Virus record (IMG/VR): IMGVR_UViG_2576861193_000004
Span: 32,001-96,000 of that record
Length of the DNA stretch: 64,000 bases
DNA from: a virus
Taxonomy: Duplodnaviria; Heunggongvirae; Uroviricota; Caudoviricetes
Direction: 5' to 3' (one strand)
Shown here: piece after piece, positions 39,420 through 59,299 of the stretch
Position numbering within the stretch: position 1 is the first letter of the stretch
How the letters are laid out: every line of letters starts with the position of its first letter
The notes under the pieces: model-generated
The model's input: only the letters and a program-made list of their open reading frames with translations
Told to the model about the DNA's origin: nothing
Database searches by the model: none
Position numbers and translations under genes: made by a program

Positions 39420-40330
39420 ATAAAATCAGGAGTTGATTAAATACGAAAAAGGAGGCGACACCCCTCCTTCCCTCCCCACTTATACATACCTGTCTTGTTC
39501 GCTATACATGTTGTGTTTTCTTCGTGTTTTATCTGTCTCAACCTCTCTATAGGCGTTAATGCTCACTCCTTCCAGAATGTTCTATACGGCGACTATTTCT
39601 GTTGGTGAATTGGGTGTGTTGTTTTCTCTGTCGGTGTATGTGGTTTCGTTCGTTTTGCGGTGGTTCTTCTATGGGGTGTTCTCGTCGTTTTGGTGATTGT
39701 TCTTCTCCGTGTATGGAGTAATGGCAGGTGGGCGATTCCTTTCGTTATTGTGTTTGAGTTGTTTGTCTGGAGTGTGAAAGGCTTTTGTAGTTATTCGTGT
39801 ATTGGGTAATGGCGTTTCCCGTGATTGTTATGTTTCGTGTCTTTTGGGATTGAGAGAAACCTTGCGGTTACAGGCTTCGTTGGGGTTTCAGTGATTCTGG
39901 TGTTTCTTCGCTGTTTGGGTAATGGCGTGTCGTGGGTATCGCGCGTATGAATGTTTTCGGATTGCCTGTGAAAGTTAGGTTGGTTGTCCGGTAGCCTGGG
40001 GAGAAGAGGTGGGTCTTTTCGGTAGCCTGCCATAAAGAGGTTGGTTGTTTTGGGGAATGGCATGTGTGTTATTTAGTTGTTTTGTTATGCCTGAAAATAA
40101 GTTGTTTATATGGTTGTGTAACGCAACGGGAACGATTTTGAGCGTGTGTTTTTGTTGGTGGTGTGTTGGGTCGTCTGTGGTGAAAATTGGACGCTGTGGC
40201 GCTGTCTGCTGCGTAGAATTACGGGTATAAGAAGTGATGTGTGAATACGTCAATTTTTTAGACCAAATCGGGTGAAAGCGTTGACGTTTCGTTGATCTGT
40301 TATTCAGTTGTTTTCTTATTGGTATAAACA
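39420..40330. other. ORF-poor, strongly G+T-skewed segment with periodic GGGTAATGGCG-like motifs
   Basis: Plus strand is almost only G and T over about 0.9 kb. Repeated motif at about 39712, 39800, 39918, 40052 and tandem CGGTAGCCTG / GGTTGGTTGT pairs. Track ORFs here have implausible composition. Confidence 0.6.
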
Positions 40331-40450
40331 ACGTTAACCTATTGATATTTAAAGGTGTGATTGCAGGTATGGAAGGAGAGTAGTGGCGATCAACAGATTC
40401 TTATAGAAAAGAATCAAATTGTGACCGCCATTATCAATAAGTTGCAACCG

Positions 40451-41020
40451 TTAGTTGTTCAGATAAACATTTGGAACACGGACGTAGAAGTTCCTGTCGC
40501 CGGTAAGTTCCAGAGTAATGTTAATGTCATTACCATTGTCTAGTGTAGCCGTTGCTCTATAGAACTTATCCGTCACCTTGTCCTCTATTGTCACCTTCAT
40601 ACATTTTGGTGCAGTCGAACCGTTATTCTCTTTCAGAATAGTTGTCACGAGAGGGCAGGCTGCTTCTTCAAGAGCAACCTCGTCCTTGTGTGGGATGCCG
40701 ATGAAGATAATCCAAGCCAGCGACGCAACGATTATGATAAATGGCACTCTGCTGCCTTTTGTAATAGTCGCGCGCTTCCAGAGATAGACAGGCAGGAGGA
40801 ATACCCCCCATAGAATTGAAGGTGGTTCACAGCCAGACTCCGATAGAGCCATTCTGTCAGCTACTAACAAACCGATGGTAGTTACACCCCCAATTATAAT
40901 AGCGTAATTGGTATACTCTTCCGGCGATACTCCAAAGAAGAAAGGCATGAACGCTAGAATCCACGCATAAATGTTATTCAGAGGTTTTGTTTGTTGGTTC
41001 TGGGTTTCCATCACATCCAT
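40451..41020 (-). CDS. integral membrane protein (about 4 TM helices)
   Basis: Hydrophobic segments (IYAWILAFMPFFFG, IIIGGVTTIGLLV, ILWGVFLLPVYLW, FIIIVASLAWIIFIGI) plus soluble C-terminal domain. Confidence 0.55.
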   Translation of the reverse strand: MDVMETQNQQTKPLNNIYAWILAFMPFFFGVSPEEYTNYAIIIGGVTTIGLLVADRMALSESGCEPPSILWGVFLLPVYLWKRATITKGSRVPFIIIVASLAWIIFIGIPHKDEVALEEAACPLVTTILKENNGSTAPKCMKVTIEDKVTDKFYRATATLDNGNDINITLELTGDRNFYVRVPNVYLNN

Positions 41021-41172
41021 TCCATCACATAAAAATCGCGTTTATATATTATCAATTTTCTCACTTGTATAACCTAAATACGCATCCGTTTATCAATCCA
41101 CCTTCCACAAACATCAGCTTTAGCTATGAAAAATAACAATCTCAAAGTGAAAACCATTATCATAGGAAACGA

Positions 41173-41358
41173 TTAGATGAGATGGTCTAATTCATCATCT
41201 ATCATTGCTTTAACACTTGAGTCATTAACCCCGTATTGATTTATGAGCCGTTTCAGCTCCGGTGAAAACTGAAGGTAGATATCGTGAGCGTTTTTCACTG
41301 TAGGTTCAACGCCACGCATTTCAAGCGCCTTTAGTAGATATGAGTCTTCTTTAAGCAT
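41173..41358 (-). CDS. hypothetical small protein
   Basis: 61-aa ORF between two early-type genes. Confidence 0.3.
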   Translation of the reverse strand: MLKEDSYLLKALEMRGVEPTVKNAHDIYLQFSPELKRLINQYGVNDSSVKAMIDDELDHLI

Positions 41359-41394
41359 AAATTCTCCGTTATCTAGTATGAAGCGATTGCCGGA

Positions 41395-41694
41395 TTACCA
41401 TTGCCAGCACTCTAGCCCTTCAACGACCGGTGCACCACAATCAAAATGTACAGAGTCAAAGCCTACATCAAGTACTTTCTGAATGTTAGCAATCGCGCCT
41501 TCGGATATACCATATCGACGCAAGTCATCTTTCCAGACATCATCCTGTAACCCGGCGTGGACAATACAACCGCCATCAATTTGTGAAACCCAATCCAGCT
41601 CATTGCTTGCGATCATGAATCGGCGAGCATCTTCCTCTGATGTATGAGATGAACTGATCAATGCCACCTGGTAGGCTTGGGTAATGTTCAACAT
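41395..41694 (-). CDS. hypothetical protein (early-type cassette gene)
   Basis: ORF preceded by two copies of the AACAAnTTGTT palindrome flanking a GATAAT -10-like hexamer. Starts about 160 bp downstream of the metG terminator. Confidence 0.5.
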   Translation of the reverse strand: MLNITQAYQVALISSSHTSEEDARRFMIASNELDWVSQIDGGCIVHAGLQDDVWKDDLRRYGISEGAIANIQKVLDVGFDSVHFDCGAPVVEGLECWQW

Positions 41695-41702
41695 TTCAAC
41701 AA

Positions 41703-41780
41703 CTCCGAAACAATTTGTTTTCTTATGTGGCTTATTATCTCAATCAACAAAAGGTAGAAAACAAATTGTTTTAGGGTTTG
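41703..41780 (-). promoter_or_regulatory. conserved promoter-palindrome cassette (two AACAAnTTGTT sites flanking GATAAT)
   Basis: GAAACAATTTGTTTTC (41707-41722) and GAAAACAAATTGTTTTA (41757-41773) around a minus-strand GATAAT hexamer. The same cassette is upstream of genes starting at 36729, 37454, 38405, 38888, 55263, 55986 and terS. Confidence 0.6.
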
Positions 41781-41807
41781 TTAAAGTCAGAAGGGGTTGT
41801 GTCTATA

Positions 41808-41836
41808 TGAAAATGCCCAGCGTGTTGCCGGGCATT
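41808..41836 (-). terminator. metG terminator
   Basis: Hairpin ATGCCC...GGGCAT followed by T-run on minus strand, 20 bp after the metG stop. Confidence 0.6.
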
Positions 41837-41855
41837 GCGAACAGAGGTTGTTTAA

Positions 41856-43889
41856 TTACTTAACCTGGTGGCCTGGTTTAGCACCAGCATCCGGGCTTAA
41901 CAGGAAGATATCTTTCCCGCCGGGGCCAGCAGCCATCACCATGCCTTCGGAGATACCGAAGCGCATTTTACGCGGAGCCAGGTTAGCCACCATAATGGTG
42001 TGACGACCAATCAGTGCCTGTGGGTCTGGATAAGCAGAACGGATGCCTGAGAAGACATTACGCTTTTCACCACCGAGATCCAGTGTCAGACGCAGCAGTT
42101 TGTCAGAACCTTCGACAAACTCCGCGTTTTCAATCAGCGCCACACGCAGGTCAACTTTGGCGAAGTCGTCAAAGGTGATGGTTTCCTGAATCGGGTCGTC
42201 AGCCAGTGGGCCAGTTACCGGTGCAGCTGTGGCTTTCACTTCTTCTTTGGATGCTTCCACCAGTGCTTCCACCTGTTTCATATCGATACGGTTATACAGT
42301 GCCTTGAACGGATTCACTTTATGGCCCAGCAGCGGTTGCTGGATACCATCCCAGGTCAGTTCTGTATTCAGGAATGCTTCTGCACGTTCAGTCAGTTTCG
42401 GCAGTACCGGTTTCAGGTACGTCATCAGCACGCGGAACAGGTTAATGCCCATAGAGCAAATCGCCTGCAGGTCGGCATCGCGGCCTTCCTGCTTCGCCAC
42501 CACCCACGGAGCCTGTTCATCAACATAGCGGTTAGCCAGGTCAGCCAGTGACATGATTTCACGGATAGCTTTGCCAAATTCGCGGCTTTCCCACGCTTCA
42601 CCAATCACTTCAGCGGCATCAGTGAAGGTTTTGTACAGTTGCGGGTCAGCCAGTTCGCTTGCCAGCACGCCGTCAAAACGTTTGTTGATAAAACCTGCAT
42701 TACGGGAGGCCAGGTTAACCACTTTGTTCACGATATCGGCATTCACGCGCTGAACAAAATCTTCCAGGTTGAGATCGATATCATCAATGCGCGAAGAGAG
42801 TTTCGCAGTGTAGTAGTAACGCAGGCTGTCGGCGTCAAAATGATTCAGCCAGGTGCTGGCTTTAATAAAGGTGCCGCGAGACTTGGACATCTTCGCGCCG
42901 TTCACCGTCACATAGCCGTGAACAAACAGGTTGGTCGGCTTGCGGAAGTTGCTGCCTTCCAGCATGGCAGGCCAGAACAGGCTGTGGAAGTAAACGATAT
43001 CTTTACCGATGAAGTGGTACAGCTCGGCGGTGGAGTCTTTCTTCCAGTATTCGTCGAAGCTGGTAGTGTCGCCGCGTTTGTCGCACAGATTCTTGAAGGA
43101 ACCCATGTAGCCAATCGGCGCGTCCAGCCAGACGTAGAAATATTTGCCCGGTGCGTTCGGAATTTCAAAACCGAAGTACGGCGCATCGCGGGAGATATCC
43201 CACTGTTGCAGGCCAGATTCAAACCACTCCTGCATTTTGTTTGCCACCTGCTCCTGCAACGCACCGCTGCGGGTCCATGCCTGCAACATTTCGCTGAAAG
43301 AGGGCAGATCAAAGAAGAAGTGTTCAGAATCACGCATTACCGGCGTAGCGCCAGAAACCACCGATTTCGGCTCGATCAATTCAGTCGGGCTATATGTTGC
43401 GCCGCAGACTTCACAGTTATCGCCGTATTGATCTGGCGCTTTACATTTAGGACAGGTGCCTTTTACAAAACGGTCCGGCAGGAACATGCCTTTTTCCGGG
43501 TCGTACAACTGAGAGATAGTGCGGTTTTTAATAAAACCGTTCTCTTTCAGGCGAGTATAGATAAGCTCAGACAACTGACGGTTCTCTTCGCTGTGCGTCG
43601 AGTGATAGTTGTCATAGCTGATGTTAAAGCCTGCGAAATCAGTCTGGTGTTCCTGACTCATTTCGCCAATCATCTGCTCCGGTGTGATACCAAGCTGCTG
43701 TGCTTTCAGCATGATCGGCGTACCGTGGGCATCGTCGGCACAGATGAAATTAACCTCGTGGCCGCGCATTCGCTGGTAACGAACCCAGACATCAGCCTGG
43801 ATGTGCTCCAGCATATGGCCGAGGTGGATTGAGCCGTTAGCGTACGGCAGCGCGCACGTCACCAGAATTTTCTTCGCGACTTGGGTCAT
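41856..43889 (-). CDS. metG: methionine--tRNA ligase
   Basis: 677-aa product essentially identical by eye to E. coli MetG ([29 protein letters not shown]...KMSKS...). Track ORF begins at an upstream in-frame start; true ATG at 43889. Confidence 0.95.
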
Positions 43890-44046
43890 AGTAGGCATTA
43901 CTTCTTTGTAGTGAAAAGGGGCTTGATAGTAACAAAATGGCCTTATGTCTGCCATGTGATAACAGCATTTCTCATAAATGATTAAATGTCGTAGCTGGAG
44001 TACACTACAAGGCGACAATTGCGCAAATTAAAATAAAGGAGACGGG

Positions 44047-45147
44047 ATGAGCGAGTCCAAATCGCCGGATGCCCTGAGAGCAATGGTAGCCGGTACGCTG
44101 GCTAATTTTCAGCACCCAACCCTGAAACACAACCTGACTACGCTTAAAGCGTTACACCATGTTGCGTTGATGGATGACACACTGCATGTCGAACTAATCA
44201 TGCCTTTCGTGTGGAATAAGCCTTTTGAAGACCTGAAAGAGCAATGTAGTGGTGATCTGCTCCGTATCACTGGCGCAAAGGCTATTGACTGGAAGCTGTC
44301 GTACAACATTGCCACGCTTAAGCGCGTCAAAAACCAACCAGGCATTAATGGCGTTAAGAACATTATCGCCGTCAGCTCAGGCAAGGGCGGCGTGGGTAAA
44401 TCCTCCACGGCGGTAAACCTGGCACTGGCGTTGGCTGCTGAAGGTGCGAAAGTTGGTATTTTGGATGCCGATATCTATGGTCCATCAATTCCAACCATGC
44501 TGGGCGCGGAAAACCAACGTCCAACCTCACCTGACGGTACTCACATGGCACCTATCATGTCTCATGGCCTGGCAACCAACTCTATTGGTTATCTGGTCAC
44601 CGACGACAATGCAATGGTGTGGCGTGGACCGATGGCCAGCAAGGCGCTGATGCAGATGTTGCAGGAAACTCTATGGCCTGATCTGGACTATCTCGTTCTC
44701 GATATGCCGCCGGGCACTGGTGATATTCAGTTGACGCTGGCGCAGAACATTCCTGTAACTGGTGCGGTTGTGGTAACTACGCCGCAAGACATCGCGCTGA
44801 TCGATGCGAAGAAAGGCATTGTGATGTTCGAAAAAGTCGAAGTGCCGGTACTGGGTATCGTCGAAAACATGAGTGTGCATATTTGCAGTAACTGCGGTCA
44901 TCACGAGCCAATTTTTGGCACCGGTGGCGCACAGAAACTGGCCGAGAAATACAACACGCAGTTGTTAGGCCAAATGCCACTTCATATCTCTCTTCGTGAA
45001 GATCTGGATAACGGAACACCAACCGTTATTAGTCGTCCAGATAGCGAATTTACGGCTATTTATCGTGACCTCGCAGATCGCGTTGCTGCCCAAATGTATT
45101 GGCAAGGTGAAGTAATACCTGGCGAAATCGCATTCCGCGCAGTGTGA
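44047..45147 (+). CDS. apbC: iron-sulfur cluster carrier protein ApbC/Mrp
   Basis: P-loop GKGGVGKSSTAVNLA, CxxC motif (CSNCGHHEP), divergent from metG as in E. coli. Confidence 0.95.
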   Translation: MSESKSPDALRAMVAGTLANFQHPTLKHNLTTLKALHHVALMDDTLHVELIMPFVWNKPFEDLKEQCSGDLLRITGAKAIDWKLSYNIATLKRVKNQPGINGVKNIIAVSSGKGGVGKSSTAVNLALALAAEGAKVGILDADIYGPSIPTMLGAENQRPTSPDGTHMAPIMSHGLATNSIGYLVTDDNAMVWRGPMASKALMQMLQETLWPDLDYLVLDMPPGTGDIQLTLAQNIPVTGAVVVTTPQDIALIDAKKGIVMFEKVEVPVLGIVENMSVHICSNCGHHEPIFGTGGAQKLAEKYNTQLLGQMPLHISLREDLDNGTPTVISRPDSEFTAIYRDLADRVAAQMYWQGEVIPGEIAFRAV

Positions 45148-45176
45148 TAAAAAGGCGGTGCATTGCACCGCCTAAT
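45148..45176 (-). terminator. hairpin terminator between apbC and the umuD'-like gene
   Basis: Perfect hairpin GGCGGTGCA-T-TGCACCGCC. The T-run lies on the minus-strand side, so it is oriented for the umuD'-like gene. Confidence 0.55.
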
Positions 45177-45184
45177 CAGTTCTC

Positions 45185-45574
45185 CTACATCACGGGACAA
45201 TCATCAAACTCGCCACTTCTTGCGTCGTTGATAATGTGAGTGATCACACCAAACACGGCATTGCTGCCCGTGCATCCATCGTCATCCTTTGGCAATGCTT
45301 CCTTCTTACCGGTTCTTAAATCCTCCAGATGCTGACGTGGGTACTTCCGGTATCTTTTTACGCGATATTCCCCATCCAGAGCGCATACAAGCAGAGAACC
45401 ATCAACCGGGGTAAGTGAGGAATCGACCACCAGCAATGCACCCTGTAATATTCCCTCACGATGATGACTATCAGCTGCCCTCATGAAGTAGGTCGCTGAA
45501 GGATGTCTAATTATCTGCTGATCAAGAGAAATACGGCTCTCAGCATAATCCGCCGCAGGAGAAGGGAAGCCCAT
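45185..45574 (-). CDS. UmuD'-like (HumD-like) S24 peptidase-fold protein lacking the N-terminal cleavable arm
   Basis: Aligns with UmuD from about residue 25 (GFPSPAADY...HPSATYF). Ser (DSH) and Lys (RVKRY) positions retained. In-frame stop 5 codons upstream of ATG, SD GAGGTG. Confidence 0.8.
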   Translation of the reverse strand: MGFPSPAADYAESRISLDQQIIRHPSATYFMRAADSHHREGILQGALLVVDSSLTPVDGSLLVCALDGEYRVKRYRKYPRQHLEDLRTGKKEALPKDDDGCTGSNAVFGVITHIINDARSGEFDDCPVM

Positions 45575-45592
45575 AGCGTTTTCACCTCAGAG

Positions 45593-45612
45593 TACTGTTT
45601 ATCCATACAGTA
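45593..45612 (-). promoter_or_regulatory. LexA (SOS) box
   Basis: TACTGTTTATCCATACAGTA matches CTGT-N8-ACAG; located about 20 bp upstream of the umuD'-like ATG. Confidence 0.75.
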
Positions 45613-45672
45613 TACATTAAAGATGCTTGAAGTGTGCAATAGCGCGATGCTTTGCGCTCGCCTGGTGGCGCG

Positions 45673-45936
45673 TTATTTTTTGGCTATATCTTCTTTCTGA
45701 TATACCGGATCGTTTCCTTTTGGCAGCAGGAGGCTTAACTGCCGGTAGTGCCGTAGCCGTTCCATGAAATAGGTGCGCAGGTTCTCAGGTTGCTCACGGG
45801 CTACCTGTTCCGCTATGACGGGTATGTTCAATCGCTCTTTGTAGGCAACCCCCCTGGCAGCCAGGTCAACGTTAACTTTATTCCTTTCTTCCTGGCTTTT
45901 AGCTGCTATGTTCCATTCGTTCATATTAAATCCCAT
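45673..45936 (-). CDS. hypothetical protein
   Basis: 87-aa ORF upstream of the LexA box and umuD'-like gene. Start uncertain (ATG 45936 or 45924), weak SD. Confidence 0.35.
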
Positions 45937-46392
45937 CCAGAATAATTGAATAACGGCTATTATTTAGTCGCCGCAATATCTTCAAAGTTTTTTTTCTCAC
46001 CCCATTGCTTTTTGCGCACAGCTTATCTGGCTTGCGGTGCGCGAAATGTAAATTCGCCTTCAGAGTTATCCACAAAGTTATGCACTTGCAACGGGGCCAT
46101 TTTCCTCATACCGTGTTTGCACACACAGGAAATGGATATTTTATTAATTGAATTTTATTAAATAATAATGATAAGGAGAAAATTTGAGATGTAATCATGA
46201 CATTAATAGATAGGGCCTGCATTACAGGCCCCAACTACATCAAGGAATTCACAGTTCCCTGATTTTTATACCGAAAACATGTGCCGTAAGTTCACGTTAA
46301 CGACTTTCTTTCACCGAATCCAACTATATAGAGGTTGGGTTTCTACGTCAACGTGAGAGCACGCAGCTTTACATTAGACGAGGATTACCCTG

Positions 46393-46530
46393 ATGATTGT
46401 ATTTTTTCAGTTTCTAAGTGCATTTTTAAATGCGCCTGTTCTTAGCCAAGTGCTGGCGATTGTCTTCATCGTGGTTCTGATATGGTTTTTCAAGTCAGTG
46501 ATAAACAGAGGCGTGCGCTGGCTTATTTAA
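46393..46530 (+). CDS. small hydrophobic peptide (45 aa, single predicted TM helix)
   Basis: ATG 46393 preceded by SD GAGGA at 9 nt. Sequence MIVFFQFLSAFLNAPVLSQVLAIVFIVVLIWFFKSVINRGVRWLI. Below the ORF-track size cutoff. Confidence 0.3.
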   Translation: MIVFFQFLSAFLNAPVLSQVLAIVFIVVLIWFFKSVINRGVRWLI

Positions 46531-47062
46531 TGTCGCGATGAGATATTAATTCCCTTGCTGTTTAACCATTTTTTGTGTGTGCTGGTGAGCGTGTGAAGGC
46601 TCAATTTGTTGCCCACCAGTATTTACTATTTCTAAGCTCCACAGTGTCACTTCCGCACAAACAACTTAGCGCGGAATCAGTATTCGGCCCAAGATGTAAA
46701 AAGCCAACCTGCGTTATGGTTCGCATTTCCAAATAGTGTTCTGAACGCCCTTGCCGGGCGCGAGATGTAGATTAGCGTTCACGCTATGCTGATATACGGC
46801 TTTAGACTTTCCATATTGCTGACAGGCTTTATCTGCGGTTTTTTGCAGGCTATCCAGCCCATACCAGCCATCAGACTGGATGCTTACCTTTTCACCGTCA
46901 TTGTATTGCACCATCGCGCACCCAAACATGGCTATCATCGCACCGACAATACCACTTTTCCAAAAAGCTCTAATTAGGTCATTCGTTACCTAATGTCCGA
47001 ACTGCTAAAGCATCCAAGTTGCTGTAGAATCACCGCCAATTACATAAGCCTGAAATAAGTGG

Positions 47063-48625
47063 ATGAAAATGACAAGTATTCAACAACGTGCAGAGCTTCA
47101 TCGTCAAATCTGGCAAATTGCTAACGATGTCAGGGGTTCGGTCGATGGATGGGATTTTAAGCAATACGTTCTGGGCGCACTTTTCTACCGTTTTATCAGC
47201 GAAAATTTTTCCAGTTATATTGAAGCCGGTGATGACAGTATCTGTTATGCGAAACTGGATGACAGCGTAATTACTGATGACATTAAAGACGATGCCATCA
47301 AAACTAAAGGCTACTTCATCTACCCCAGTCAGCTTTTCTGCAACGTAGCTGCGAAAGCAAATACTAATGACAGACTGAATGCAGATTTAAACAGCATCTT
47401 CGTTGCTATCGAAAGTTCTGCTTACGGTTATCCTTCAGAAGCAGACATCAAAGGTTTGTTTGCTGATTTCGATACCACCAGTAACCGCCTGGGTAACACC
47501 GTTAAAGATAAAAATGCCCGCCTGGCTGCGGTTCTGAAAGGGGTTGAAGGGTTAAAACTTGGTGACTTCAACGAACATCAGATTGACCTGTTCGGTGATG
47601 CCTATGAGTTCCTGATTTCTAACTATGCGGCAAATGCCGGTAAGTCAGGCGGTGAGTTCTTTACACCGCAGCACGTCTCCAGGCTGATTGCACAACTGGC
47701 AATGCATGGCCAGACCCACGTTAACAAAATCTACGACCCGGCAGCGGGTTCCGGCTCACTGTTGTTGCAGGCGAAAAAACAGTTTGATAACCACATCATC
47801 GAAGAAGGCTTTTTCGGTCAGGAAATCAACCATACGACCTATAACCTGGCGCGTATGAACATGTTTTTGCACAATATCAACTACGACAAGTTTGATATCA
47901 AGCTGGGTAATACACTGACTGAGCCGCACTTCAGAGATGAAAAACCGTTTGACGCCATCGTATCTAACCCACCGTATTCGGTGAAATGGATTGGCAGCGA
48001 TGACCCGACGCTGATTAACGATGAGCGTTTTGCCCCGGCTGGCGTTCTGGCCCCCAAATCCAAAGCTGACTTTGCGTTTGTATTACATGCACTGAACTAT
48101 CTTTCTGCCAAAGGTCGTGCTGCGATTGTCTGCTTCCCGGGTATTTTTTACCGTGGCGGCGCGGAGCAGAAAATCCGTCAGTATCTGGTCGATAATAACT
48201 ATGTCGAAACCGTGATTTCACTGGCACCGAACCTGTTCTTTGGCACCACCATTGCAGTAAACATTCTGGTGCTGTCTAAACATAAAACGGATACCAACGT
48301 TCAGTTTATTGACGCCAGCGAACTGTTCAAAAAAGAGACTAACAACAATATCCTGACCGATGCCCATATCGAACAGATTATGCAGGTATTTGCCAGCAAG
48401 GAAGATGTTGCTCATCTGGCGAAATCTGTCACGTTTGAGACCGTTGTCGCGAATGACTATAACCTGTCGGTAAGCAGCTATGTGGAAGCGAAAGATACTC
48501 GCGAAATTATCGATATCGCTGAGTTGAATGCAGAACTGAAAACCACGGTCAGCAAAATCGACCAGTTGCGTAAAGATATTGATGCGATTGTGGCTGAAAT
48601 TGAAGGCTGCGAGGTGCAGAAATGA
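47063..48625 (+). CDS. hsdM: type I restriction-modification methyltransferase subunit
   Basis: N-terminal HsdM pattern ([10 protein letters not shown]...[17 protein letters not shown]), N6-adenine MTase motif NPPYS, 520 aa as recalled for EcoR124I HsdM. Confidence 0.9.
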
Positions 48626-49857
48626 GCGAGTTGAGTTATCTGGAAAAATTGCTGGATGGGGTTGAGGTTGAGTGGTTGCCATTGGGGAAACTAGGTGAAT
48701 TAGTTCGTGGAAATGGATTGCCTAAGTCTGATTTTACCGAATCTGGGGTTCCTGCCATACACTATGGTCAGATATATACTTTTTACGGATTATCTACTGA
48801 AACAACAAAGTCATTTGTTTCCCATGAAACGGCGAAGAAGCTTAAAAAGGTTAACTCTGGTGATGTTGTTATTACTAACACAAGCGAAAATTTTACTGAT
48901 GTTGGTAAGGCGCTTGTTTATCTAGGTAAAGAGCAAGCTGTTACTGGTGGCCATGCAACTATTTTCAAGCCAAATAGCACTATTATTGGGAAATACTTTG
49001 CCTATTTCACGCAAACGGATTCTTTTGCAAATGAGAAAAGGAAATACTCCAAGGGAACTAAAGTAATTGATGTGTCTGCATCGGATATGGCGAAAATTAT
49101 TATCCCTATCCCCTGTCCGGAAAATCCCAAAAAATCCCTTGCTATCCAGTCTGAAATCGTTCGGATTCTGGACAAATTTACTGCACTTACCGCTGAGCTT
49201 ACCGCTGAGCTTACCATGCGTAAAAAACAGTACAACTACTATCGCGACCAATTGCTGAGTTTTAAAGAAGGTGAGGTTGAGTGGAAAACTTTGGGAGAAG
49301 TGGCTCAATACTCGAAAACAAGAATTAGTTTCGAACTACTTGATGAAAGGAATTATGTTGGCGTAGATAATCTGCTGCAAAACAGAGCAGGAAAATCATT
49401 ATCTAATCATGTACCCACATCAGGTAAATTAACGGAGTTTATACCTAACGATATACTGATTGGGAATATCCGCCCATATTTGAAAAAAATTTGGCAAGCA
49501 GATTGTATCGGTGGAACAAATGGCGATGTATTGGTTATTCGTTGCATAGATAGCTCAATAAATACCAGATATCTATATCAGATTTTGGCAGATGACAAAT
49601 TCTTTGAATACAACATGCAGCATGCTAAAGGAGCAAAAATGCCGCGTGGCAGTAAAGAGGATATAATGAAATACCCAATCCCTGTACCGCCACTCACCTT
49701 GCAAGCTCGCATTGTCGAAATACTCAACAAATTCGATACCCTGACAAACTCCATCACTGAAGGTCTTCCGCGTGAAATCGAATTACGCCAGAAACAATAC
49801 GAATACTACCGTGATTTACTGTTCAGTTTCCCAAAACCTGAAACTGTCAGTAATTAA
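48622..49857 (+). CDS. hsdS: type I restriction-modification specificity subunit, type IC-like
   Basis: Two target-recognition domains separated by a central conserved region carrying the TAELTAEL repeat. C-terminal YYRDLL repeat of the conserved motif. Overlaps hsdM stop. Confidence 0.9.
49186..49209 (+). repeat. 2 x 12-bp tandem repeat CTTACCGCTGAG encoding TAEL-TAEL in HsdS
   Basis: Perfect tandem duplication inside the hsdS central conserved region. Confidence 0.9.
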
Positions 49858-49978
49858 TTGACCATTGCTACCGACCGGGCCACCTTAACACCCGGTCTGT
49901 ATATAGACTATTTTTTACGCGCCGGAAGTCACTCTTAACGCCCTTCCGGCCCTTGCCAGGCGGCACAAAGGATGCGCT

Positions 49979-52900
49979 ATGACTCATCAAACACACACCA
50001 TTGCTGAATCCAATAACTTTATCGTCCTTGATAAGTACATCAAAGCTGAGCAAACAAGCGACAGCTACCAGAGCGAATCGGACCTGGAACGTGAACTGAT
50101 TCAGGACCTGCGGAATCAGGGTTATGAATTTATTTCCGTAAAATCACAGTCGGCAATGCTGTCCAATGTTCGGGAACAGCTTCAGAGCCTCAATGGTGTG
50201 ATGTTTAATGACAGCGAGTGGCGGCGCTTCACGGAGCAGTATCTGGACAATCCCAGCGATGGTATTCTGGATAAGACCCGTAAAATCCATATCGACTATA
50301 TCTGCGACTTTATTTTTGACGACGGGCGTCTTGAGAACATCTATCTGATCGATAAAAAGAATCTCATGCGCAACAAAGTGCAGATTATCCAGCAGTTTGA
50401 ACAGGCAGGTTCTCATGCTAACCGTTATGACGTCACGATCCTGGTTAATGGCTTGCCTCTGGTGCAAATCGAACTGAAAAAGCGCGGCGTGGCGATTCGT
50501 GAGGCTTTCAACCAGATACATCGTTACAGCAAAGAGAGTTTTAACAGCGAAAATTCCCTGTTTAAGTATCTGCAACTGTTTGTCATTTCTAACGGCACCG
50601 ATACCCGTTATTTTGCCAACACCACAAAGCGCGATAAAAACAGTTTTGACTTCACCATGAACTGGGCGAAATCAGACAACACGCTGATTAAAGACCTCAA
50701 AGACTTTACCGCTACCTTTTTCCAGAAACATACCCTGCTTAATGTTCTGGTGAACTACAGCGTGTTTGACAGTAGTCAGACGCTACTGGTGATGCGACCG
50801 TACCAGATTGCAGCTACCGAACGGATCTTATGGAAAATCAACAGCTCCTATAAAGCGAAAAACTGGTCTAACCCCGAAAGCGGTGGCTTTATCTGGCACA
50901 CCACTGGTTCCGGTAAAACACTGACCAGCTTTAAAGCCGCGCGTCTGGCAACTGAACTGGACTTTATTGATAAAGTCTTCTTCGTGGTCGACAGGAAAGA
51001 CCTCGATTACCAGACCATGAAGGAATATCAGCGTTTTTCGCCAGACAGCGTCAACGGCTCGGAAAATACCGCAGGTCTTAAACGAAATCTGGATAAGGAC
51101 GATAACAAAATTATCGTCACCACTATTCAGAAACTTAATAACCTGATGAAAGCAGAAAGCGACCTGCCTGTATACAATCAGCAAGTGGTGTTTATATTTG
51201 ATGAATGCCACCGCAGCCAGTTTGGAGAAGCGCAGAAAAACCTGAAGAAGAAATTCAAACGCTATTATCAGTTTGGTTTTACCGGCACCCCTATTTTCCC
51301 GGAAAATGCCTTAGGCTCAGAAACGACCGCCAGCGTATTTGGTCGTGAATTGCATTCGTATGTAATTACCGATGCGATTCGTGACGAAAAAGTGCTCAAA
51401 TTCAAGGTGGACTACAACGATGTGCGGCCACAGTTTAAGTCTTTAGAGACAGAAACTGACGAGAAAAAACTGAGTGCGGCTGAAAATCAGCAGGCGTTTC
51501 TTCATCCCATGCGTATTCAGGAAATCACGCAATATATCCTGAACAACTTCCGCCAGAAGACTCACCGTACTTACCCCGGCTCCAAAGGTTTTAATGCCAT
51601 GCTGGCAGTAAGCAGCGTGGATGCCGCGAAAGCCTATTACGCGACGTTTAAACGGTTACAAGAGGAAGCCGCTAATAAATCTGCTACCTATAAACCACTG
51701 CGTGTTGCGACAATCTTCTCCTTTGCCGCCAATGAAGAACAAAATGCCATTGGTGAAATTTCCGATGAAACTTTTGATACCAGCGCAATGGACAGCAGTG
51801 CTAAAGAGTTTCTTGACGCTGCAATTCGTGAGTATAACAGCTATTTTAAAACTAACTTCAGCACCGACAGTAACGGTTTTCAGAACTACTATCGTGATTT
51901 AGCCCAACGGGTTAAAAATCAGGATATCGATCTGTTAATTGTCGTTGGGATGTTTTTAACCGGCTTCGACGCTCCAACATTGAACACGCTATTCGTCGAT
52001 AAAAACTTGCGTTTTCACGGCCTGATGCAGGCATTCTCCCGTACCAACCGCATTTATGACGCTACTAAAACCTTCGGTAACATCGTCACTTTTCGGGATC
52101 TGGAACGCTCAACCATTGATGCCATAACGCTGTTTGGTGATAAAAATACTAAAAATGTGGTGTTAGAAAAGAGTTATGCAGAGTATATGGAAGGCTTTAC
52201 TGATGCTGCTACAGGTGAAGCTAAACGCGGCTTTATGGCAGTAGTTTCAGAACTGGAACAACGGTTCCCTGACCCTGCCAGTATTGAAAGTGAAAAAGAG
52301 AAGAAAGACTTCGTTAAACTGTTTGGCGAATACCTGCGTGCCGAGAACATCCTGCAAAACTATGATGAATTTGCCACGCTGAAAGCCCTGCAACAAATCG
52401 ATCTTAGCGATCCTGTTGCGGTAGAAAAATTCAAAGAAGAACATTATGTGGATGATGAAAAGTTCGCTGAATTGCAAACGATTCGTCTCCCTGCTGAACG
52501 CAAGATTCAGGATTATCGTTCTGCCTATAACGATATTCGTGACTGGCAGCGCCGCGAGAAAGAAGCTGATAAAAAAGAAAAATCAACCACTGACTGGGAT
52601 GACGTGGTTTTTGAGGTCGATTTGCTGAAGTCTCAGGAAATAAACCTGGATTATATCCTTGGACTGATTTTCGAACACAACAGACAAAATAAAGGCAAGG
52701 GCGAAATGATCGAAGAGGTCAAACGCTTAATTCGTTCAAGCCTGGGGAACCGGGCGAAAGAGGGCCTGGTGGTCGATTTTATTCAGCAAACGAACCTGGA
52801 TGATTTACCAGACAAAGCCAGCATCATTGACGCGTTCTTTACCTTTGCTCAACACGAACAGCTACGTGAAGCAGAAGCGTTGATTAAAGAAGAAAATCTC

Positions 52901-53095
52901 AATGAAGAGGCGGCGAAACGCTATATTCGCACGTCTTTAAAACGCGAATACGCCACCGAAAATGGCACAGAATTAAACGAGACATTACCAAAACTTAGTC
53001 CGTTAAACCCGCAATATAAAACGAAAAAACAGACGGTTTTCCAGAAAATCGTCACGTTTATTGAAAAGTTCAAAGGAGTAGGTGGGCAGATATAG
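49979..53095 (+). CDS. hsdR: type I restriction enzyme endonuclease/translocase subunit
   Basis: 1038 aa with SF2 helicase motifs (TGSGKT, DECHRS, GFTGTP). Confidence 0.9.
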
Positions 53096-53153
53096 TGTAT
53101 TAATCTGAACCAGATCTGGCAGATATCTGTGCAAATTGCAGATAGCTGTCAGA

Positions 53154-53564
53154 TCAAGCCATCGTAGGGATGTCTGTATCCACTTTGAACTCCGGTACAC
53201 CAACGAACTCTTTAACCTTCATCTGATAGCCGGTTCTGTCAGTTTTGATGACTTCCTGCTTGCCCTCGATAAATTGCTCACGCCACTCGTCGCGACGGGA
53301 AGCTGGCATGATCAGCAAAACGTTAGTCATATCCGTGACCTTCCTCCAGTACTCGGCCCAAATATTCTGTTTCACCCATTCCAGATCGACTTTATCCAGC
53401 CAAGCTCGATTCAAACGTGAGCGATCTTCATCTGGTCGATGGTTTAGTCTCAGCAGGCGATTAATCATGTTGTGGCGTTCGTCGCCATAAACGAAGTCGT
53501 GTACCTGATACATGAAGGCGATCTCTTTCTCGCACTCGGCCACGATTTCGTGGATGACATTCAT
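53154..53564 (-). CDS. hypothetical protein
   Basis: 136-aa ORF convergent with hsdR, SD AGGAA before ATG 53564. Confidence 0.5.
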   Translation of the reverse strand: MNVIHEIVAECEKEIAFMYQVHDFVYGDERHNMINRLLRLNHRPDEDRSRLNRAWLDKVDLEWVKQNIWAEYWRKVTDMTNVLLIMPASRRDEWREQFIEGKQEVIKTDRTGYQMKVKEFVGVPEFKVDTDIPTMA

Positions 53565-53740
53565 TTCCTGCCGATAGTCGATAGTCGATAGCAGCGTTTG
53601 AGTTGGGATCGTCGATGATGGAAAGGGCTGTATTCATAATAGCACCATTAAGAAGTGATTTGTTTAATGGTGCTATTATTTCAAAAATGAAAAGGTACTA
53701 AATAGAAATAAACCGGCAATCCTTCAAATAAAGGCATTGT

Positions 53741-54355
53741 CTAATCATACTTGGAGGTATTTATCACCAGAATTTTGTTTGTATAAATCTTCTTAATATC
53801 CCATGTGACATTACCGGAATACCATTGGCCGTTATACACTTGGTTTCCAGTTGCACCTGTCATAGTTACATAGACAGGTCTGTCGTAATCGGTTCGTCTA
53901 TAGTTATATACCCCAACCATAGCAGGCATTACTGCGCACGGATACCCCATATCTATTGTAAATTGTGGGTCAGAAATAGTGATAAGTTTCGCATCAAGGG
54001 GCATCATCTCACCGTGATACACCATTGCGCCTGCGCTGTTATACATGGCAATGCCATAGCCAGAATGTGGTAACACCATATCAGAAAAAGCATAAACTGT
54101 TATTGTTCCGGGGCTACCATTTACCTGATGCAATCTGAGAGCATTGTATCCGTTACTATTTTCATGAATAAACATCATGTTCGCCTTATTACTGCTTTTT
54201 ATGAAGAAAAAGCATGATTTGTTTGATGGGATTGATGTTTTAAAAACAGAACCTTTAGATGCAGACATTGTCCCTTTATTAATCAGATTTTGCGGAGTAA
54301 ATTCTGGACTCATCCACAAACCTCCATCTGATTGAGTAATTGACATCCCGAACAT
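53741..54355 (-). CDS. hypothetical beta-rich protein (Asn/Tyr/Gly/Thr-rich)
   Basis: AT-rich ORF. Track start 54412 is TTG. ATG at 54355 lies 2 nt after the stop of the upstream 93-aa gene. Confidence 0.45.
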   Translation of the reverse strand: MFGMSITQSDGGLWMSPEFTPQNLINKGTMSASKGSVFKTSIPSNKSCFFFIKSSNKANMMFIHENSNGYNALRLHQVNGSPGTITVYAFSDMVLPHSGYGIAMYNSAGAMVYHGEMMPLDAKLITISDPQFTIDMGYPCAVMPAMVGVYNYRRTDYDRPVYVTMTGATGNQVYNGQWYSGNVTWDIKKIYTNKILVINTSKYD

Positions 54356-54357
54356 AA

Positions 54358-54639
54358 TTATCCCCAGTATGTGTATATGTAAGAACCAAGCCCCGTATAT
54401 AAATTTGACCAACTAACCGTATTTCCATTAATAGTAACTTTCGGAACAGGTAAATTGATGTAGTTGTCGTTGTTAAGAGGCATCAATGACCACACGGCAT
54501 GAAGTGATTTACCCGGTGGCGGATTAGAGTACGTCTTAGAGCCTGATGACGCCGTAAATCGATCAAGAAAAAAAATAGGTGTAAGGAAGCCAGTAACGTT
54601 AATTCCTTTATTGTTGTAAATCCCTGTACCGTATGCCAT
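54358..54639 (-). CDS. hypothetical protein (93 aa)
   Basis: ATG 54639 with SD AGGGTG, terminator-like hairpin upstream, coupled to the following gene. Confidence 0.45.
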   Translation of the reverse strand: MAYGTGIYNNKGINVTGFLTPIFFLDRFTASSGSKTYSNPPPGKSLHAVWSLMPLNNDNYINLPVPKVTINGNTVSWSNLYTGLGSYIYTYWG

Positions 54640-54693
54640 TTTTCACCCTTGTTTTTATCAACACAATATGGCCGATCATGCGGCCATATCAGA

Positions 54694-55263
54694 TCAATTA
54701 GAGCTTTGAAAGACTTTGTGTGGTTGTGTTGCGAGGTTATGTCGATGGCTTAACTCACGCATCATGTCTTCAAGGCGACTCTTTGTGTCGTCGAGTTGGT
54801 CGGCCATTGCTCCCAAAAGCTGACGAACGGCCATCGGATCATCGCTGTTTAGTGATGGCATTTTATAACCCGCCTGAGAAGACATAAGATTGAACGCAGA
54901 CATCAACATCGTTAGAGAGGATTTAAGCCCAGCAATTTCACGATCTTTGCTGGCAATAATCGCCTCACTCTTGTTAGTGTCATCAGTACGTTGAGTCTCG
55001 CTCACCATATCCAAAGTCGCCTGCAACTTATCAGCGAGCTCTTTTTCAGCAAGATAATGAACGCCGAAATGATGTGCTAAAGCTACAACCTGAGTTGGTT
55101 CTTCAAAGGTGGAATTAAAATTAAGTACTGTAAACAGTCTCTCAAATATGGAAACGTCTTCTGTTCCCCGAACAATACCTAACATTTTGACAAGTTCATT
55201 AGCATCCATTTCTTCGAATAGGGCGTTTTGTTCATCAGCTATTGCTTTGCATTTCTCGCACAT
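54694..55263 (-). CDS. hypothetical protein with N-terminal CxxC
   Basis: 189-aa ORF (MCEKCK...) preceded by the conserved promoter-palindrome cassette. Confidence 0.5.
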   Translation of the reverse strand: MCEKCKAIADEQNALFEEMDANELVKMLGIVRGTEDVSIFERLFTVLNFNSTFEEPTQVVALAHHFGVHYLAEKELADKLQATLDMVSETQRTDDTNKSEAIIASKDREIAGLKSSLTMLMSAFNLMSSQAGYKMPSLNSDDPMAVRQLLGAMADQLDDTKSRLEDMMRELSHRHNLATQPHKVFQSSN

Positions 55264-55560
55264 GTGTTTTCCTTAATTCTTAAACAAGTTGTTTTCTTAT
55301 TGGGTTTATTGTGATGTGGCATATAAGGGGAGCAAGCTAAACGTAAAGGTGCAAACTCTCTATTTTGGTCAACGAAACACAAGGGCCATTTGGCCCTTGC
55401 CATTAACACGTTGCTTTACGGACTAGCGGATAGGCGAAGTAGATCGCCAAACCAATGAGGACGCCATCAGAAATGACAGACATCATCTTTCCCGTAAAAT
55501 CCACCAACACCGCCATCACCAGAAGAGCAATGACGGTCACAAGCCGGAATCTCTCAAGCA

Positions 55561-55986
55561 TTAGAGATAAGCATCCAGTGACAACTGAAGCGCCTGGGCG
55601 ATCTTTTTCAGTGCCTGCTCTTCTTGTTCACCAATGCCGTCCTGGTCGGCAATATCAAGGCACAGACACAGAACATCGACCGCCTCTGGAGTGCCCGCAA
55701 TATCAGCCAGCTCACGCATAGCCTGCGCATTCGCAGAACGAGGGGACGCTTCGTAACGAGCACGGATATTGGCGCTCATTTGGGCAATTTCACCAGCAAA
55801 CGGAGAAAACGCAGGCAGAGCTGCAATTGTCTTCTCAAGAATGGCAATTTCTTTTGCGTCACATGTGCCGTCGGCATAGGAGATCATGTACGCGCCCCAC
55901 ACGGTGGCCTCAACCGCATCACGGTTCTCCATTTTTTTGACTTCGATAACAGCTTTACGAGTTTTCTTTTTGAAGAAACCTAACAT
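55561..55986 (-). CDS. TerB-like (tellurite-resistance TerB fold) protein
   Basis: 141 aa with a TerB-like helical pattern. Preceded by the conserved palindrome cassette. Confidence 0.5.
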   Translation of the reverse strand: MLGFFKKKTRKAVIEVKKMENRDAVEATVWGAYMISYADGTCDAKEIAILEKTIAALPAFSPFAGEIAQMSANIRARYEASPRSANAQAMRELADIAGTPEAVDVLCLCLDIADQDGIGEQEEQALKKIAQALQLSLDAYL

Positions 55987-56079
55987 GTGTTTTCCTTTTG
56001 TTATTTGTCAAAACAAGTTGTTTTATAGTTTCATAAATTGCTTACGCAAAGATGGTCAATGCATATGCACTAACAACCG

Positions 56080-56268
56080 TCAGAAATAACCAAGTACCGA
56101 ACCGACTGGAAAAACAAAAATCCCAACTACACGAGCCAAGGTCATGCCAGCCTGAAACTTGAGATCACCTGAGCAAACGAGTTTTATAATGTTGGATACC
56201 CAACCGGCGGCCATGAGAGCCAGAATTGCCAGCCAAATTTTCCCAAAGTGATTTGAAAGCCAGTTCAT
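56080..56268 (-). CDS. small membrane protein with two TM helices (holin-like)
   Basis: 62 aa with TM1 IWLAILALMAAGWV and TM2 VVGIFVFPVGSVLGYF. Start overlaps stop of upstream small ORF. Confidence 0.45.
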   Translation of the reverse strand: MNWLSNHFGKIWLAILALMAAGWVSNIIKLVCSGDLKFQAGMTLARVVGIFVFPVGSVLGYF

Positions 56269-56516
56269 ACAACCACCTTAGTCACAACATGATCCTGAGT
56301 AACTGGATGAACTTGAGGTATCGCATCCACCGTCATCCCATCCAGAGTGACAGGACGCTCTACTGTAGTGGTGGTAATTGTCGTCGACGGAGGTGTGGTG
56401 ATGGATGAATCCGGCATCAAAAGGCTCTGACCGGCTGGTACGGTAATCGCTGCCAGAGTTGCCAAAATCACTCCGTAGGCCATTGGCTTCAGTCGATTTC
56501 GTTGAAAATTTTCCAT
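56265..56516 (-). CDS. small protein with hydrophobic segment and Thr/Pro-rich linker
   Basis: ATG 56516 with SD AAGGA at 8 nt. Translationally coupled to the 2-TM gene. Lies inside a longer alternative-frame ORF (56278-56772). Confidence 0.35.
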   Translation of the reverse strand: MENFQRNRLKPMAYGVILATLAAITVPAGQSLLMPDSSITTPPSTTITTTTVERPVTLDGMTVDAIPQVHPVTQDHVVTKVVV

Positions 56517-56914
56517 GAGAACTGTCCTTGTGTGTCCGGGTTTCACGCAACACACGAGAAGCGACGCTATTACGCACCTTCTCCATGCCTACTGTCGTGC
56601 CCAGATTAGCTATGGCGGTAGCTTGCGCATTAATGCGCTTCTCCAGTTCAAACACTCGTTCTTCCAGTTCCGTAAGGCGTGCGGAAACACGACCACTAAA
56701 CAGCTCGGTCAGCACCAGGCGAATTGAACGGGGACGTTTATTGAAAGAAGTGAAAGACGTTTGACGGGCCATGTGGATTCCATTCAGTGTCAGAAAGAGT
56801 TGCGGCTGGCCAAGCCAGCCGCCTTTTGGCGTTCCATCCTGGAACCGTACCTAACCGGTACTTCGTCATCCTGACGATTTATAAGATACCTGATTTATTA
56901 TAGTGGGTAAATAC

Positions 56915-57523
56915 TTACTTATCTTTTTGTGACAAAAACCCAATGTCATGCTTGTGAGGCATATCAGCTGCGGAATAGGCGGCGATCTTCGCCAGACGGT
57001 CACACATTTCGTTCTCGCGATGACCTGCATGGCCTTTAACCCACTTCCAGCGGACATTATGACGACTGGCGGCCGCGTCGAGACGTTTCCAGAGATCCAC
57101 GTTTTTGACTGGCTTCTTCTCAGACGTGATCCATCCGTTACGCTTCCAGCCTTTCATCCAGAGCGTCATGCCGTTTTTAAGATACTGGCTGTCGGAATGC
57201 AGGATCACGTTGCAGGGGTACTTCAGACGCTCCAGCGCAATCAGGGCGCCCATCATCTCCATCCGATTGTTGGTCGTGCTGTGAAAGCCCTCAGAAAGCT
57301 CGCGCTCTTCGCCTCGATACTGGAGAACGATGCCGTAACCGCCCGGCCCGCCCGGATTTTTGAGGCAAGAGCCATCACTGAATACTTTTACGGTTTTGAG
57401 CTGGGGATTGAACTCGACTACGGGGGTTTTGAAGTTGGTACGGGATTGCTGGTGGGTTTGGTATCTGGCTTTGGACTTCGTGCGGCAGCCAGTATGTTGC
57501 CGGGCTGGGGTCTTGGTCGTCAT
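56915..57523 (-). CDS. ribonuclease H (RNase HI family) with N-terminal basic extension
   Basis: RNase HI core motifs ([53 protein letters not shown]). ATG 57523 with SD GGAG; track start 57580 is GTG. Confidence 0.85.
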
Positions 57524-57552
57524 TTTGGCTCCAGAATCGCGCGCCGCGACGA

Positions 57553-57591
57553 TTTTTTTTTCCCTCGCGCGTGTGCGCACGCGTGCGTGTA
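57553..57591. promoter_or_regulatory. T9 homopolymer followed by a 26-bp perfectly alternating pyrimidine-purine GC-rich tract
   Basis: Read directly: TTTTTTTTT then CGCGCGTGTGCGCACGCGTGCGTGTA, containing the 12-bp palindrome CGCACGCGTGCG. Lies 20-60 bp upstream of the RNase H ATG. Confidence 0.6.
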
Positions 57592-58117
57592 AATATTAAA
57601 AATTTTTTAGAAAAGAAAAATTACTTCCCAGAACAGGTTTTAATAAAACCTGAACTGAACGAACGAAGTGAGTGAAGTTCACCTCGAACGAAGTGAGAGG
57701 TTGTCTTTTCAGGTAATACTCTCCCAGGGAGGTGAGTACAAAATTACCTCACCAACCTGGTCGTTTCATAACCTGAAAAGTTATGACCTAAGTCTACTGC
57801 CAGCTTAGGCTTGGGAAGTTATGGATGACAGCACCCCAGAACCGAGATCTTCCCACACTTTATGAAGGGGAGTACTGGATTCAACCTCTCGAAACACTCC
57901 AGACTCGACAATCATAAAGTGACCCTTCTCTCTGCCCACTTTGGTTCCCCCTTCCCCAACCCCTAAACGGTGCCGGTTCTACGCTGGTAGTGAGCTTTTT
58001 TAAACCTGACGCCAGTGACGCTATCCCCCACCCATCAGGTCGAGCTGCCAAAAGTATCCGGAAGCGGATAGATTGTATCACTGGTTAGTGGTGTTTTGAA
58101 TGGTAAGTACTTACATA

Positions 58118-58348
58118 TTATATTGATTGATTAATTTCTCGCCCATGAAGCTGGACGTTCAGGGCAAACACCTCATTGATGAGTTCCCCTAACAGCTGCT
58201 CCACCAGCTCTTTGTGCTCGCCTGAATGAAGACATTTGAGCGACCATTCGTAGAGACTGAAAGCCTTATCGCGATCTTTCATCATGTCGCGCACTGTGGC
58301 CAGAAAATCGCTCTCAACGAGCGCTACGACGTTCGTCGGGTATACCAT
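58118..58348 (-). CDS. hypothetical protein
   Basis: 76-aa ORF downstream of the compound inverted-repeat element. Confidence 0.4.
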   Translation of the reverse strand: MVYPTNVVALVESDFLATVRDMMKDRDKAFSLYEWSLKCLHSGEHKELVEQLLGELINEVFALNVQLHGREINQSI

Positions 58349-58431
58349 GATAGTTTTCCTTACTGTGGTTCATAAAATCGATTCTAGAGCGTCTGGAGAG
58401 GGGCTCCAGTAGGTTCTGAAGGTGTAAAACG

Positions 58432-58535
58432 GTCTGGGAGTTGTTTGGAAATCACGTCTTAAAAAGCCTGCGTCTGTATATATTAATAATTAGTACTTAG
58501 TTATTTATATATACGGAAGCAGGTTCTCAAACTAA
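58432..58535. promoter_or_regulatory. compound inverted-repeat element (copy 2), upstream of the 58118-58348 gene
   Basis: Same nested architecture and about 80 percent identity by eye to the 26808-26904 element. Confidence 0.65.
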
Positions 58536-58550
58536 CTCCCAGACTGGTGT

Positions 58551-59144
58551 TTACGCTGCCTTTTTACGTGGTCTCTTCTTCCTGACAACATTGGCAGGGT
58601 CATAACCAACCAGCTTTTTCATCACCGCCAGCGGTATTTTACTGATGGTGTGCCCAGCTTCCTGACAGTAGCCACGGAAGATAAGCAACATGCTGCCACC
58701 AGGGTTGATGTCTACTTCCACCAGCCCAAGTTCAACATCCGGCTCAACAAATGCCACGCGGCCACCTGACAAGATGACTGTTTCGTTTGCGCACTCAGCC
58801 GCACGCTCATACCACCGCGTATCGAGGGATTGTGGTATCAGCATGATCGTCGTCACTCCACGCGTCTGCTCGCGAATGGCCGCTTCTATCCAGGGGGTGA
58901 TTTTGGAGTAAGGCGGGTTAAGGAACGCCACAGTGCCAGGTTCTCCCCAACTGCACTTGAGCGCATCACGCTCAACACCGATAAAGTTCGGCAGGAGAGC
59001 ATTATCTTTGTTGCAGGCGACGTCCACATCGAACTTTACGCCTATGTAACGTTGGATGGCGACAAACAACCACTGCGGTGTGCGCCAAAGGTCGCGAAGA
59101 GAGGCATCACGCTCTCGCTTTTTGATTTTTTCGGCTGCGATCAT
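58551..59144 (-). CDS. DNA N6-adenine methyltransferase (phage Dam-type)
   Basis: Motifs DLWRTPQWLF and FLNPPYS typical of small phage N6A methyltransferases. Confidence 0.8.
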   Translation of the reverse strand: MIAAEKIKKRERDASLRDLWRTPQWLFVAIQRYIGVKFDVDVACNKDNALLPNFIGVERDALKCSWGEPGTVAFLNPPYSKITPWIEAAIREQTRGVTTIMLIPQSLDTRWYERAAECANETVILSGGRVAFVEPDVELGLVEVDINPGGSMLLIFRGYCQEAGHTISKIPLAVMKKLVGYDPANVVRKKRPRKKAA

Positions 59145-59299
59145 TACTTTACTCTGATAGGTAAATACTTACCTATTTTTTCATTTAATCCAACGGATAG
59201 CAAACAAAGAAGAACGCGCCAGATTCGCAAACGGGAAGCTCTCTGGCGCGTTTTATCGATGCTGGGTATGCAATGAGCTTACCCAGCGTCCTAAAGCTC

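Follow-up and report, generated by a model that had tools for sequence, protein, structure and literature searches.

A two-copy TAEL repeat in the HsdS subunit of an EcoR124-family restriction-modification cassette on an SSU5-like phage-plasmid

It has been textbook material since 1987-1989 that the number of TAEL repeats in the specificity subunit HsdS sets the target spacer of type IC restriction-modification (R-M) systems, and the allele described here fits that rule. Families of type I systems are defined via complementation, antibody cross-reaction and amino acid sequence (PMC3874165). In the prototype type IC pair, encoded on plasmids R124 and R124/3, EcoR124I carries two TAEL copies and recognises GAAN6RTCG, and EcoR124II carries three and recognises GAAN7RTCG, the change arising via unequal crossing-over at a 12-bp repeat (PMC3874165). 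The central (D1) and C-terminal (D2) conserved regions of HsdS form an antiparallel coiled coil that spaces the two target recognition domains (TRDs), and one TAEL unit corresponds to about one helical turn (PMC3874165). Copy number fixes the interval between the methylated adenines, at 7 nt with two units and 8 nt with three, and EcoR124-EcoDXXI hybrids with changed repeat number shifted their spacers exactly as predicted (PMC3874165). EcoDXXI and EcoprrI follow the same principle, with three TAEL units and a methylation interval of 8 (PMC3874165). In the type IC system NgoAV of N. gonorrhoeae, tetra-amino-acid repeats also lie in the central region, and natural strains with different numbers of them differ in the spacer of their methylated motif, for which there is methylome proof (PMC6789123). 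Type IC systems limit restriction by assembly control, known as restriction alleviation (PMC12707154), and R-M systems have already been noted in SSU5-group phage-plasmids (PMC7969092; bioRxiv 10.1101/2025.09.12.675607).

The locus compared here with these systems lies in the window, by which we mean the whole 64-kb stretch of viral DNA that was analysed. Positions 1212-24000 are 96.9% identical to Escherichia phage Cyrano and about 80% identical to Salmonella phage SSU5, and positions 40000-60000 are 97.8% identical to the 112-kb IncFIB-typed plasmid pYLPD4a, where the matching site shows different TRDs and a TAEL repeat of three copies. On the criteria of syntenic SSU5-type structural genes and plasmid maintenance, these matches place the locus on an SSU5-like phage-plasmid of E. 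coli.

The three hsd genes are co-oriented and stand in the order hsdM-hsdS-hsdR given by the initial annotation (Table 1). The hsdS start overlaps the hsdM stop by 4 nt (ATGA), and a 121-nt gap sets hsdR apart from hsdMS. PADLOC models called HsdM, HsdS and HsdR as type I components, and the ORF lengths are the same as, or as expected from, those of the EcoR124 subunits. A gene for a prrC-type anticodon nuclease was considered and ruled out, the hsdS-hsdR gap being too short to hold one; the locus thus differs from EcoDXXI and EcoprrI both in lacking prrC and in having two repeat copies.

Table 1. Features of the hsd locus, with positions numbered from the first letter of the window
Feature	Position	Strand	Basis or detail
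hsdMSR portable cassette	46964..53130 (approximate edges)	+	Homology limits of P1-like and chromosomal leuX-hotspot copies
hsdM, 520 aa, N6-adenine methyltransferase subunit	47063..48625	+	Pfam N6_Mtase (3.1e-121) and HsdM_N
hsdS, 411 aa, specificity subunit	48622..49857	+	Pfam Methylase_S
TRD1, variable, about residues 21-165	48682..49116	+	Poor alignment to 7bst_A; unlike EcoR124I TRD1
Central conserved region D1, one long helix, residues 169-212	49126..49257	+	DSSP of model; alignment to EcoR124 HsdS
TAEL repeat	49186..49215	+	CTTACCGCTGAG x2 (49186-49209) plus half unit CTTACC
TRD2, variable, about residues 220-355	49279..49686	+	Unlike EcoR124I TRD2 (alignment to 7bst_A)
C-terminal conserved region D2, helix residues 358-400, pairs with D1	49693..49821	+	DSSP of model; near-identical to EcoR124 HsdS
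Conserved hsdS-hsdR spacer	49858..49978	+	Promoter-like site 49885-49914; two hairpins, 49873-49897 and 49921-49950
hsdR, 1038 aa, translocase/endonuclease subunit	49979..53095	+	Pfam HSDR_N, SWI2_SNF2, T1R_D3-like and EcoR124_C (1.1e-71)

Comparison with the EcoR124 proteins bore out the proposed type IC assignment for all three subunits. HsdM is identical to EcoR124 HsdM (7bst_D) at 517 of 520 residues (99.4%), and HsdR aligns over residues 1-1038 to residues 1-1038 of EcoR124I HsdR (2w00_A; 2253 bits). HsdS aligns end to end with EcoR124 HsdS (7bst_A; E = 2.6e-77), and its layout is one in which conserved N-terminal, central and C-terminal regions flank two variable TRDs; the three conserved blocks are near-identical to 7bst_A while both TRDs diverge from it, and the D1 stretch has a single difference, T198 for N. 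The initial annotation had taken unrelated TRDs as grounds for rejecting the type IC assignment, and they are unfit for that use because the TRDs are the variable part of the protein. By every sequence criterion, the locus belongs with the type IC (EcoR124-family) systems. Since the ORFs are intact and near-identical to EcoR124, hsdMSR appears to be an intact and active-looking type I barrier.

The 121-nt region between hsdS and hsdR had been described as a separate hsdR promoter region. The gap itself is strongly conserved across 23 loci, including two hairpins. A promoter in it is only weakly supported: the promoter-like site (TTAACA-18-TATTTT) matches 9 of 12 consensus positions, and a consensus scan found such sites not enriched over shuffles across the region (18 versus 14.9 ± 4.2). 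The inverted repeats conserved in the 23 loci read GACCGGG...CCCGGTC and GCCGGAAG...CTTCCGGC, and the first of them overlaps the -35 element of the promoter-like site. They may have a role in termination or regulation between hsdMS and hsdR.

The repeat consists of two tandem CTTACCGCTGAG units (49186-49197 and 49198-49209), both exact matches and placed exactly where the initial annotation had put its TAEL-TAEL pair. It is in frame within the 411-codon hsdS ORF, the tetrapeptide unit being TAEL, and it occupies residues 189-198 of the central conserved region when all 2.5 copies are counted. Tandem Repeats Finder returned a single array with period 12, 2.5 copies and 100% matches, and no other tandem repeat between 48000 and 50500; the count of two full units therefore holds and is refined to 2.5 copies at the DNA level. 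No further occurrence of CTTACCGCTGAG with at most one mismatch was found across the 64-kb window, and the chance expectation was 0.09 matches, with 0 of 100 shuffles reaching two. The unit is that of the EcoR124 family, as had been claimed, since the primer sequences in PMC10644984 match it. The tract runs on into CTTACC because the codon after the repeat is ACC (Thr), where EcoR124 has AAC (Asn); the substitution at 49210-49215 gives a perfect periodic tract of 30 nt, against 28 nt in EcoR124. Among viral and metagenome loci, this Thr variant is rare with two copies (2/51) and commoner with three (6/34).

We used an AlphaFold model of HsdS (mean pLDDT 83.6) to place the repeat in the folded protein. 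Each TRD folds into a globule in the model, two long helices span residues 169-212 and 358-400, and the best fold match in the PDB is EcoR124I HsdS (7bst_A), with other S subunits next. DSSP of the model puts TAEL-TAEL (residues 190-197) in the middle of the first helix. Read from the sequence, 13 residues separate ILDKF and RKKQY in D1, and 17 separate ILNKF and RQKQY in D2, so that at two TAEL copies D1 is one turn (four residues) short of the length of D2, a deficit that a third copy would remove. These counts agree with the published view that three TAEL copies look optimal by alignment (PMC3874165).

EcoR124I resembles the window locus in HsdM, HsdR, the conserved regions of HsdS, the CTTACCGCTGAG unit, the gene order and the two TAEL copies. 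It differs in its location, EcoR124 being carried by a conjugative IncF plasmid, and in its TRDs; both window TRDs are unrelated to those of EcoR124I, so the half-sites would not be GAA and RTCG. Comparison with solved structures gave no half-site assignment, because the TRDs of EcoR124I, the only solved type IC S subunit, do not align with those of the window, and the remaining S subunits in the PDB give only weak matches (E about 1e-5). Each window TRD is also present, paired differently, in further type IC HsdS proteins: TRD1 is found with several other TRD2 types, and TRD2 is common to many hsdS alleles of E. coli chromosomes, plasmids and phages (matches to query 472-1236). Such recurrence with several partners is as expected from modular recombination in the type IC family. 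The number of unspecified bases is a function of the position of the target adenine within each half-site, and the N6 versus N7 rule invoked in the initial annotation is thus not simply transferable to the window TRDs. It is correct for the EcoR124 TRDs, and the general form is an adenine interval of 7 versus 8 nt (PMC3874165). NgoAV is a more distant comparison, with a LEAT repeat sequence, a distant host and an HsdS that is often truncated and acts as a homodimer.

Copies of the locus were found in other kinds of genomic context. An NCBI E. coli protein is 100% identical to the window HsdS, and the identical 411-aa protein is also encoded in P1-like phage-plasmids, directly beside pdcB-doc-phd. 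In six P1-like copies, the homology begins at 46964, about 100 nt upstream of hsdM, and reaches 98.8% over 5894 nt. Three chromosomal copies at the leuX hotspot share homology over 47066-53130, which takes in the hsd genes from the start of hsdM and a further 35 nt after the hsdR stop, at 95.9% nucleotide identity to the window. Judged from these limits, the cassette looks portable among P1-like phage-plasmids, SSU5-like phage-plasmids and the chromosome, at least three kinds of site.

The surroundings of the cassette in the window hold several genes of other kinds. Just upstream of the R-M region are a full-length methionyl-tRNA synthetase gene (metG, 41856-44018, - strand) and a gene for an ApbC/Mrp-type Fe-S carrier ATPase (44047-45147, + strand), both kept in related 110-kb plasmids. 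The cassette is adjoined by genes for an S24 (UmuD/LexA-like) peptidase (45185-45574, - strand) and a homologue of the DNA polymerase III theta subunit (45673-45936, - strand). Between the theta-like gene and the cassette, about 780 bp (45931-46713) are absent from the nearest plasmid, pYLPD4a; this segment includes an ORF (46393-46530) whose 45-aa product is very hydrophobic and matches nothing in Pfam or PADLOC. At 58551-59144 (- strand) there is an orphan adenine methyltransferase gene (PADLOC oMTase, 5e-14), labelled 'phage N-6-adenine-methyltransferase' in pYLPD4a, which probably provides a second, R-M-independent methylation function on the element.

The initial annotation had proposed that two and three copies alternate in the EcoR124 family, and both alleles were found for the window's own TRD pair in near-isogenic natural backgrounds. 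The TRD1+TRD2 combination occurs in 6 of 5,426 complete E. coli genomes, always on the chromosome, with a 1236-nt hsdS in four and a 1248-nt hsdS in two, and in the 1236-nt form on one E. albertii plasmid. The additional 12 nt of the longer allele are a third CTTACCGCTGAG, and three copies are present with this TRD pair in the two chromosomes and in one metagenome contig. Strains Ec1119 (two copies; WP_074014589.1) and CFSAN061769 (three copies; WP_063082152.1) carry the cassette at the identical site in the leuX hotspot, beside tRNA-Leu and ahr. Across about 9.7 kb, beginning upstream of hsdM and running through the flank that was compared, the 12-bp unit and two SNPs in hsdR are the only differences between them. 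Their HsdS proteins have 98% amino acid identity to that of the window but are chromosomally encoded, occur with either 2 or 3 copies and carry Asn where the window has Thr after the repeat. At the sequence level, the pair appears to reproduce the EcoR124I/EcoR124II relationship for another TRD pair. An assembly artefact was rejected as the source of the 2/3 difference: across six complete genomes, and in independent contigs from metagenomes, the alleles differ by exactly one in-frame unit.

Copy number also varies across the wider family. A pattern requiring exact flanks returned 19 two-copy and 8 three-copy loci in IMG/VR and, among metagenome contigs, 32 loci with two perfect copies, 27 with three and one with four (contig OASQ01000144.1, 649-726). 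The closest 120 protein relatives include five one-copy proteins and also three-unit forms with a degenerate middle unit. Seven TRD pairs were sampled more than once at the DNA level, five of them at least three times, and three of the seven were polymorphic for two versus three copies. When one genome per species was scanned for the exact pattern, the only locus returned was in Mixta tenebrionis; this says little on distribution because the exact DNA motif appears largely confined to mobile DNA of the E. coli group.

We considered whether the repeat could instead be a fixed structural feature, its copy number stable in the phage-plasmid lineage and the 2/3 differences elsewhere reflecting ancient lineages or hsdS recombination, not recurrent gain and loss. 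The identical two-copy HsdS protein is found on at least 24 contigs, with neighbours alike among the matches listed, as stability would predict; copies recovered by an exact-protein look-up are, however, necessarily two-repeat and carry no rate information. The central regions are common to all alleles, and a copy-number state could thus be imported together with a TRD by homologous recombination, in the manner of modular TRD shuffling. Import of a foreign central region is nevertheless hard to fit to Ec1119 and CFSAN061769, in which both TRDs and the flanks lie within the stretch that differs only by the unit and two SNPs. Three different TRD pairs are polymorphic, and a laboratory switch from R124 to R124/3 is documented (PMC3874165). 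With this evidence against it, a fixed repeat seems improbable. The opposite reading, a phase-variable simple-sequence repeat, was rejected: 2.5 copies that are always in frame make too short a tract, and 12 nt is too long for the unit. The switching rate is probably low because the tract is short (2.5 units). The proposal of a specificity-switching repeat is upheld by the natural 2- and 3-copy alleles, with the refinement that the repeat is probably a rare, slow recombinational polymorphism, seen here as differences between strains, and no high-frequency phase-variable tract.

Repeat number would have no phenotypic consequence on the element if the system formed no working restriction barrier, being methylase only or silent. 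The assembly control of restriction in type IC systems (PMC12707154) and the weak consensus match of the hsdR promoter are both compatible with such a state. All three ORFs are full length, however, HsdM departs from the EcoR124 enzyme, whose activity is biochemically established, at only 3 of 520 residues, HsdR matches from end to end at 2253 bits, and an intact cassette, 96-99% identical, persists in three genomic contexts of different kinds, so we regard a non-working system as highly improbable. We are confident, short of certainty, in the account as a whole, namely that the window carries an intact EcoR124-family cassette on an SSU5-like phage-plasmid, with a two-copy TAEL repeat setting the spacing of the TRDs.

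In the mechanism we propose for this locus, the two TRDs would be held apart by the long conserved helices D1 and D2, lying antiparallel, and the number of TAEL copies would set the distance and rotation between the TRDs and, through them, the distance between the two adenines methylated by M2S. Units would be gained or lost by unequal crossing-over or by slipped pairing between tandem copies. Each such event would leave the half-sites unchanged and make the spacer one base longer or shorter, creating a new specificity. The window allele is in the two-copy state, and its half-sites would be set by its own TRDs, which are not related to the EcoR124I ones. A switch would leave the DNA of the cell itself unmodified at the new site, and by extension from the family, assembly-based restriction alleviation would tolerate this at the window locus. 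We infer from the family both that copy number would alter the spacer for the window TRDs and that recombination of this kind would be the mechanism.

A broader proposition, which we consider possible but rather doubtful, is that a discrete cassette (about 46964-53130) moves between P1-like and SSU5-like phage-plasmids and the leuX hotspot and diversifies in the wild both by TRD swapping and by TAEL copy numbers from 1 to 4, with the 1- and 4-copy alleles being functional and giving spacers outside the characterised range.

The window locus is a further allele of a well-understood system, and its only additions are details of natural history. In practical terms it is of modest value: it marks the phage-plasmid as carrying a type I barrier that looks active, and E. 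coli strains that are almost isogenic supply natural 2- and 3-copy forms of a single TRD pair, in which the spacer rule could be read from methylomes.
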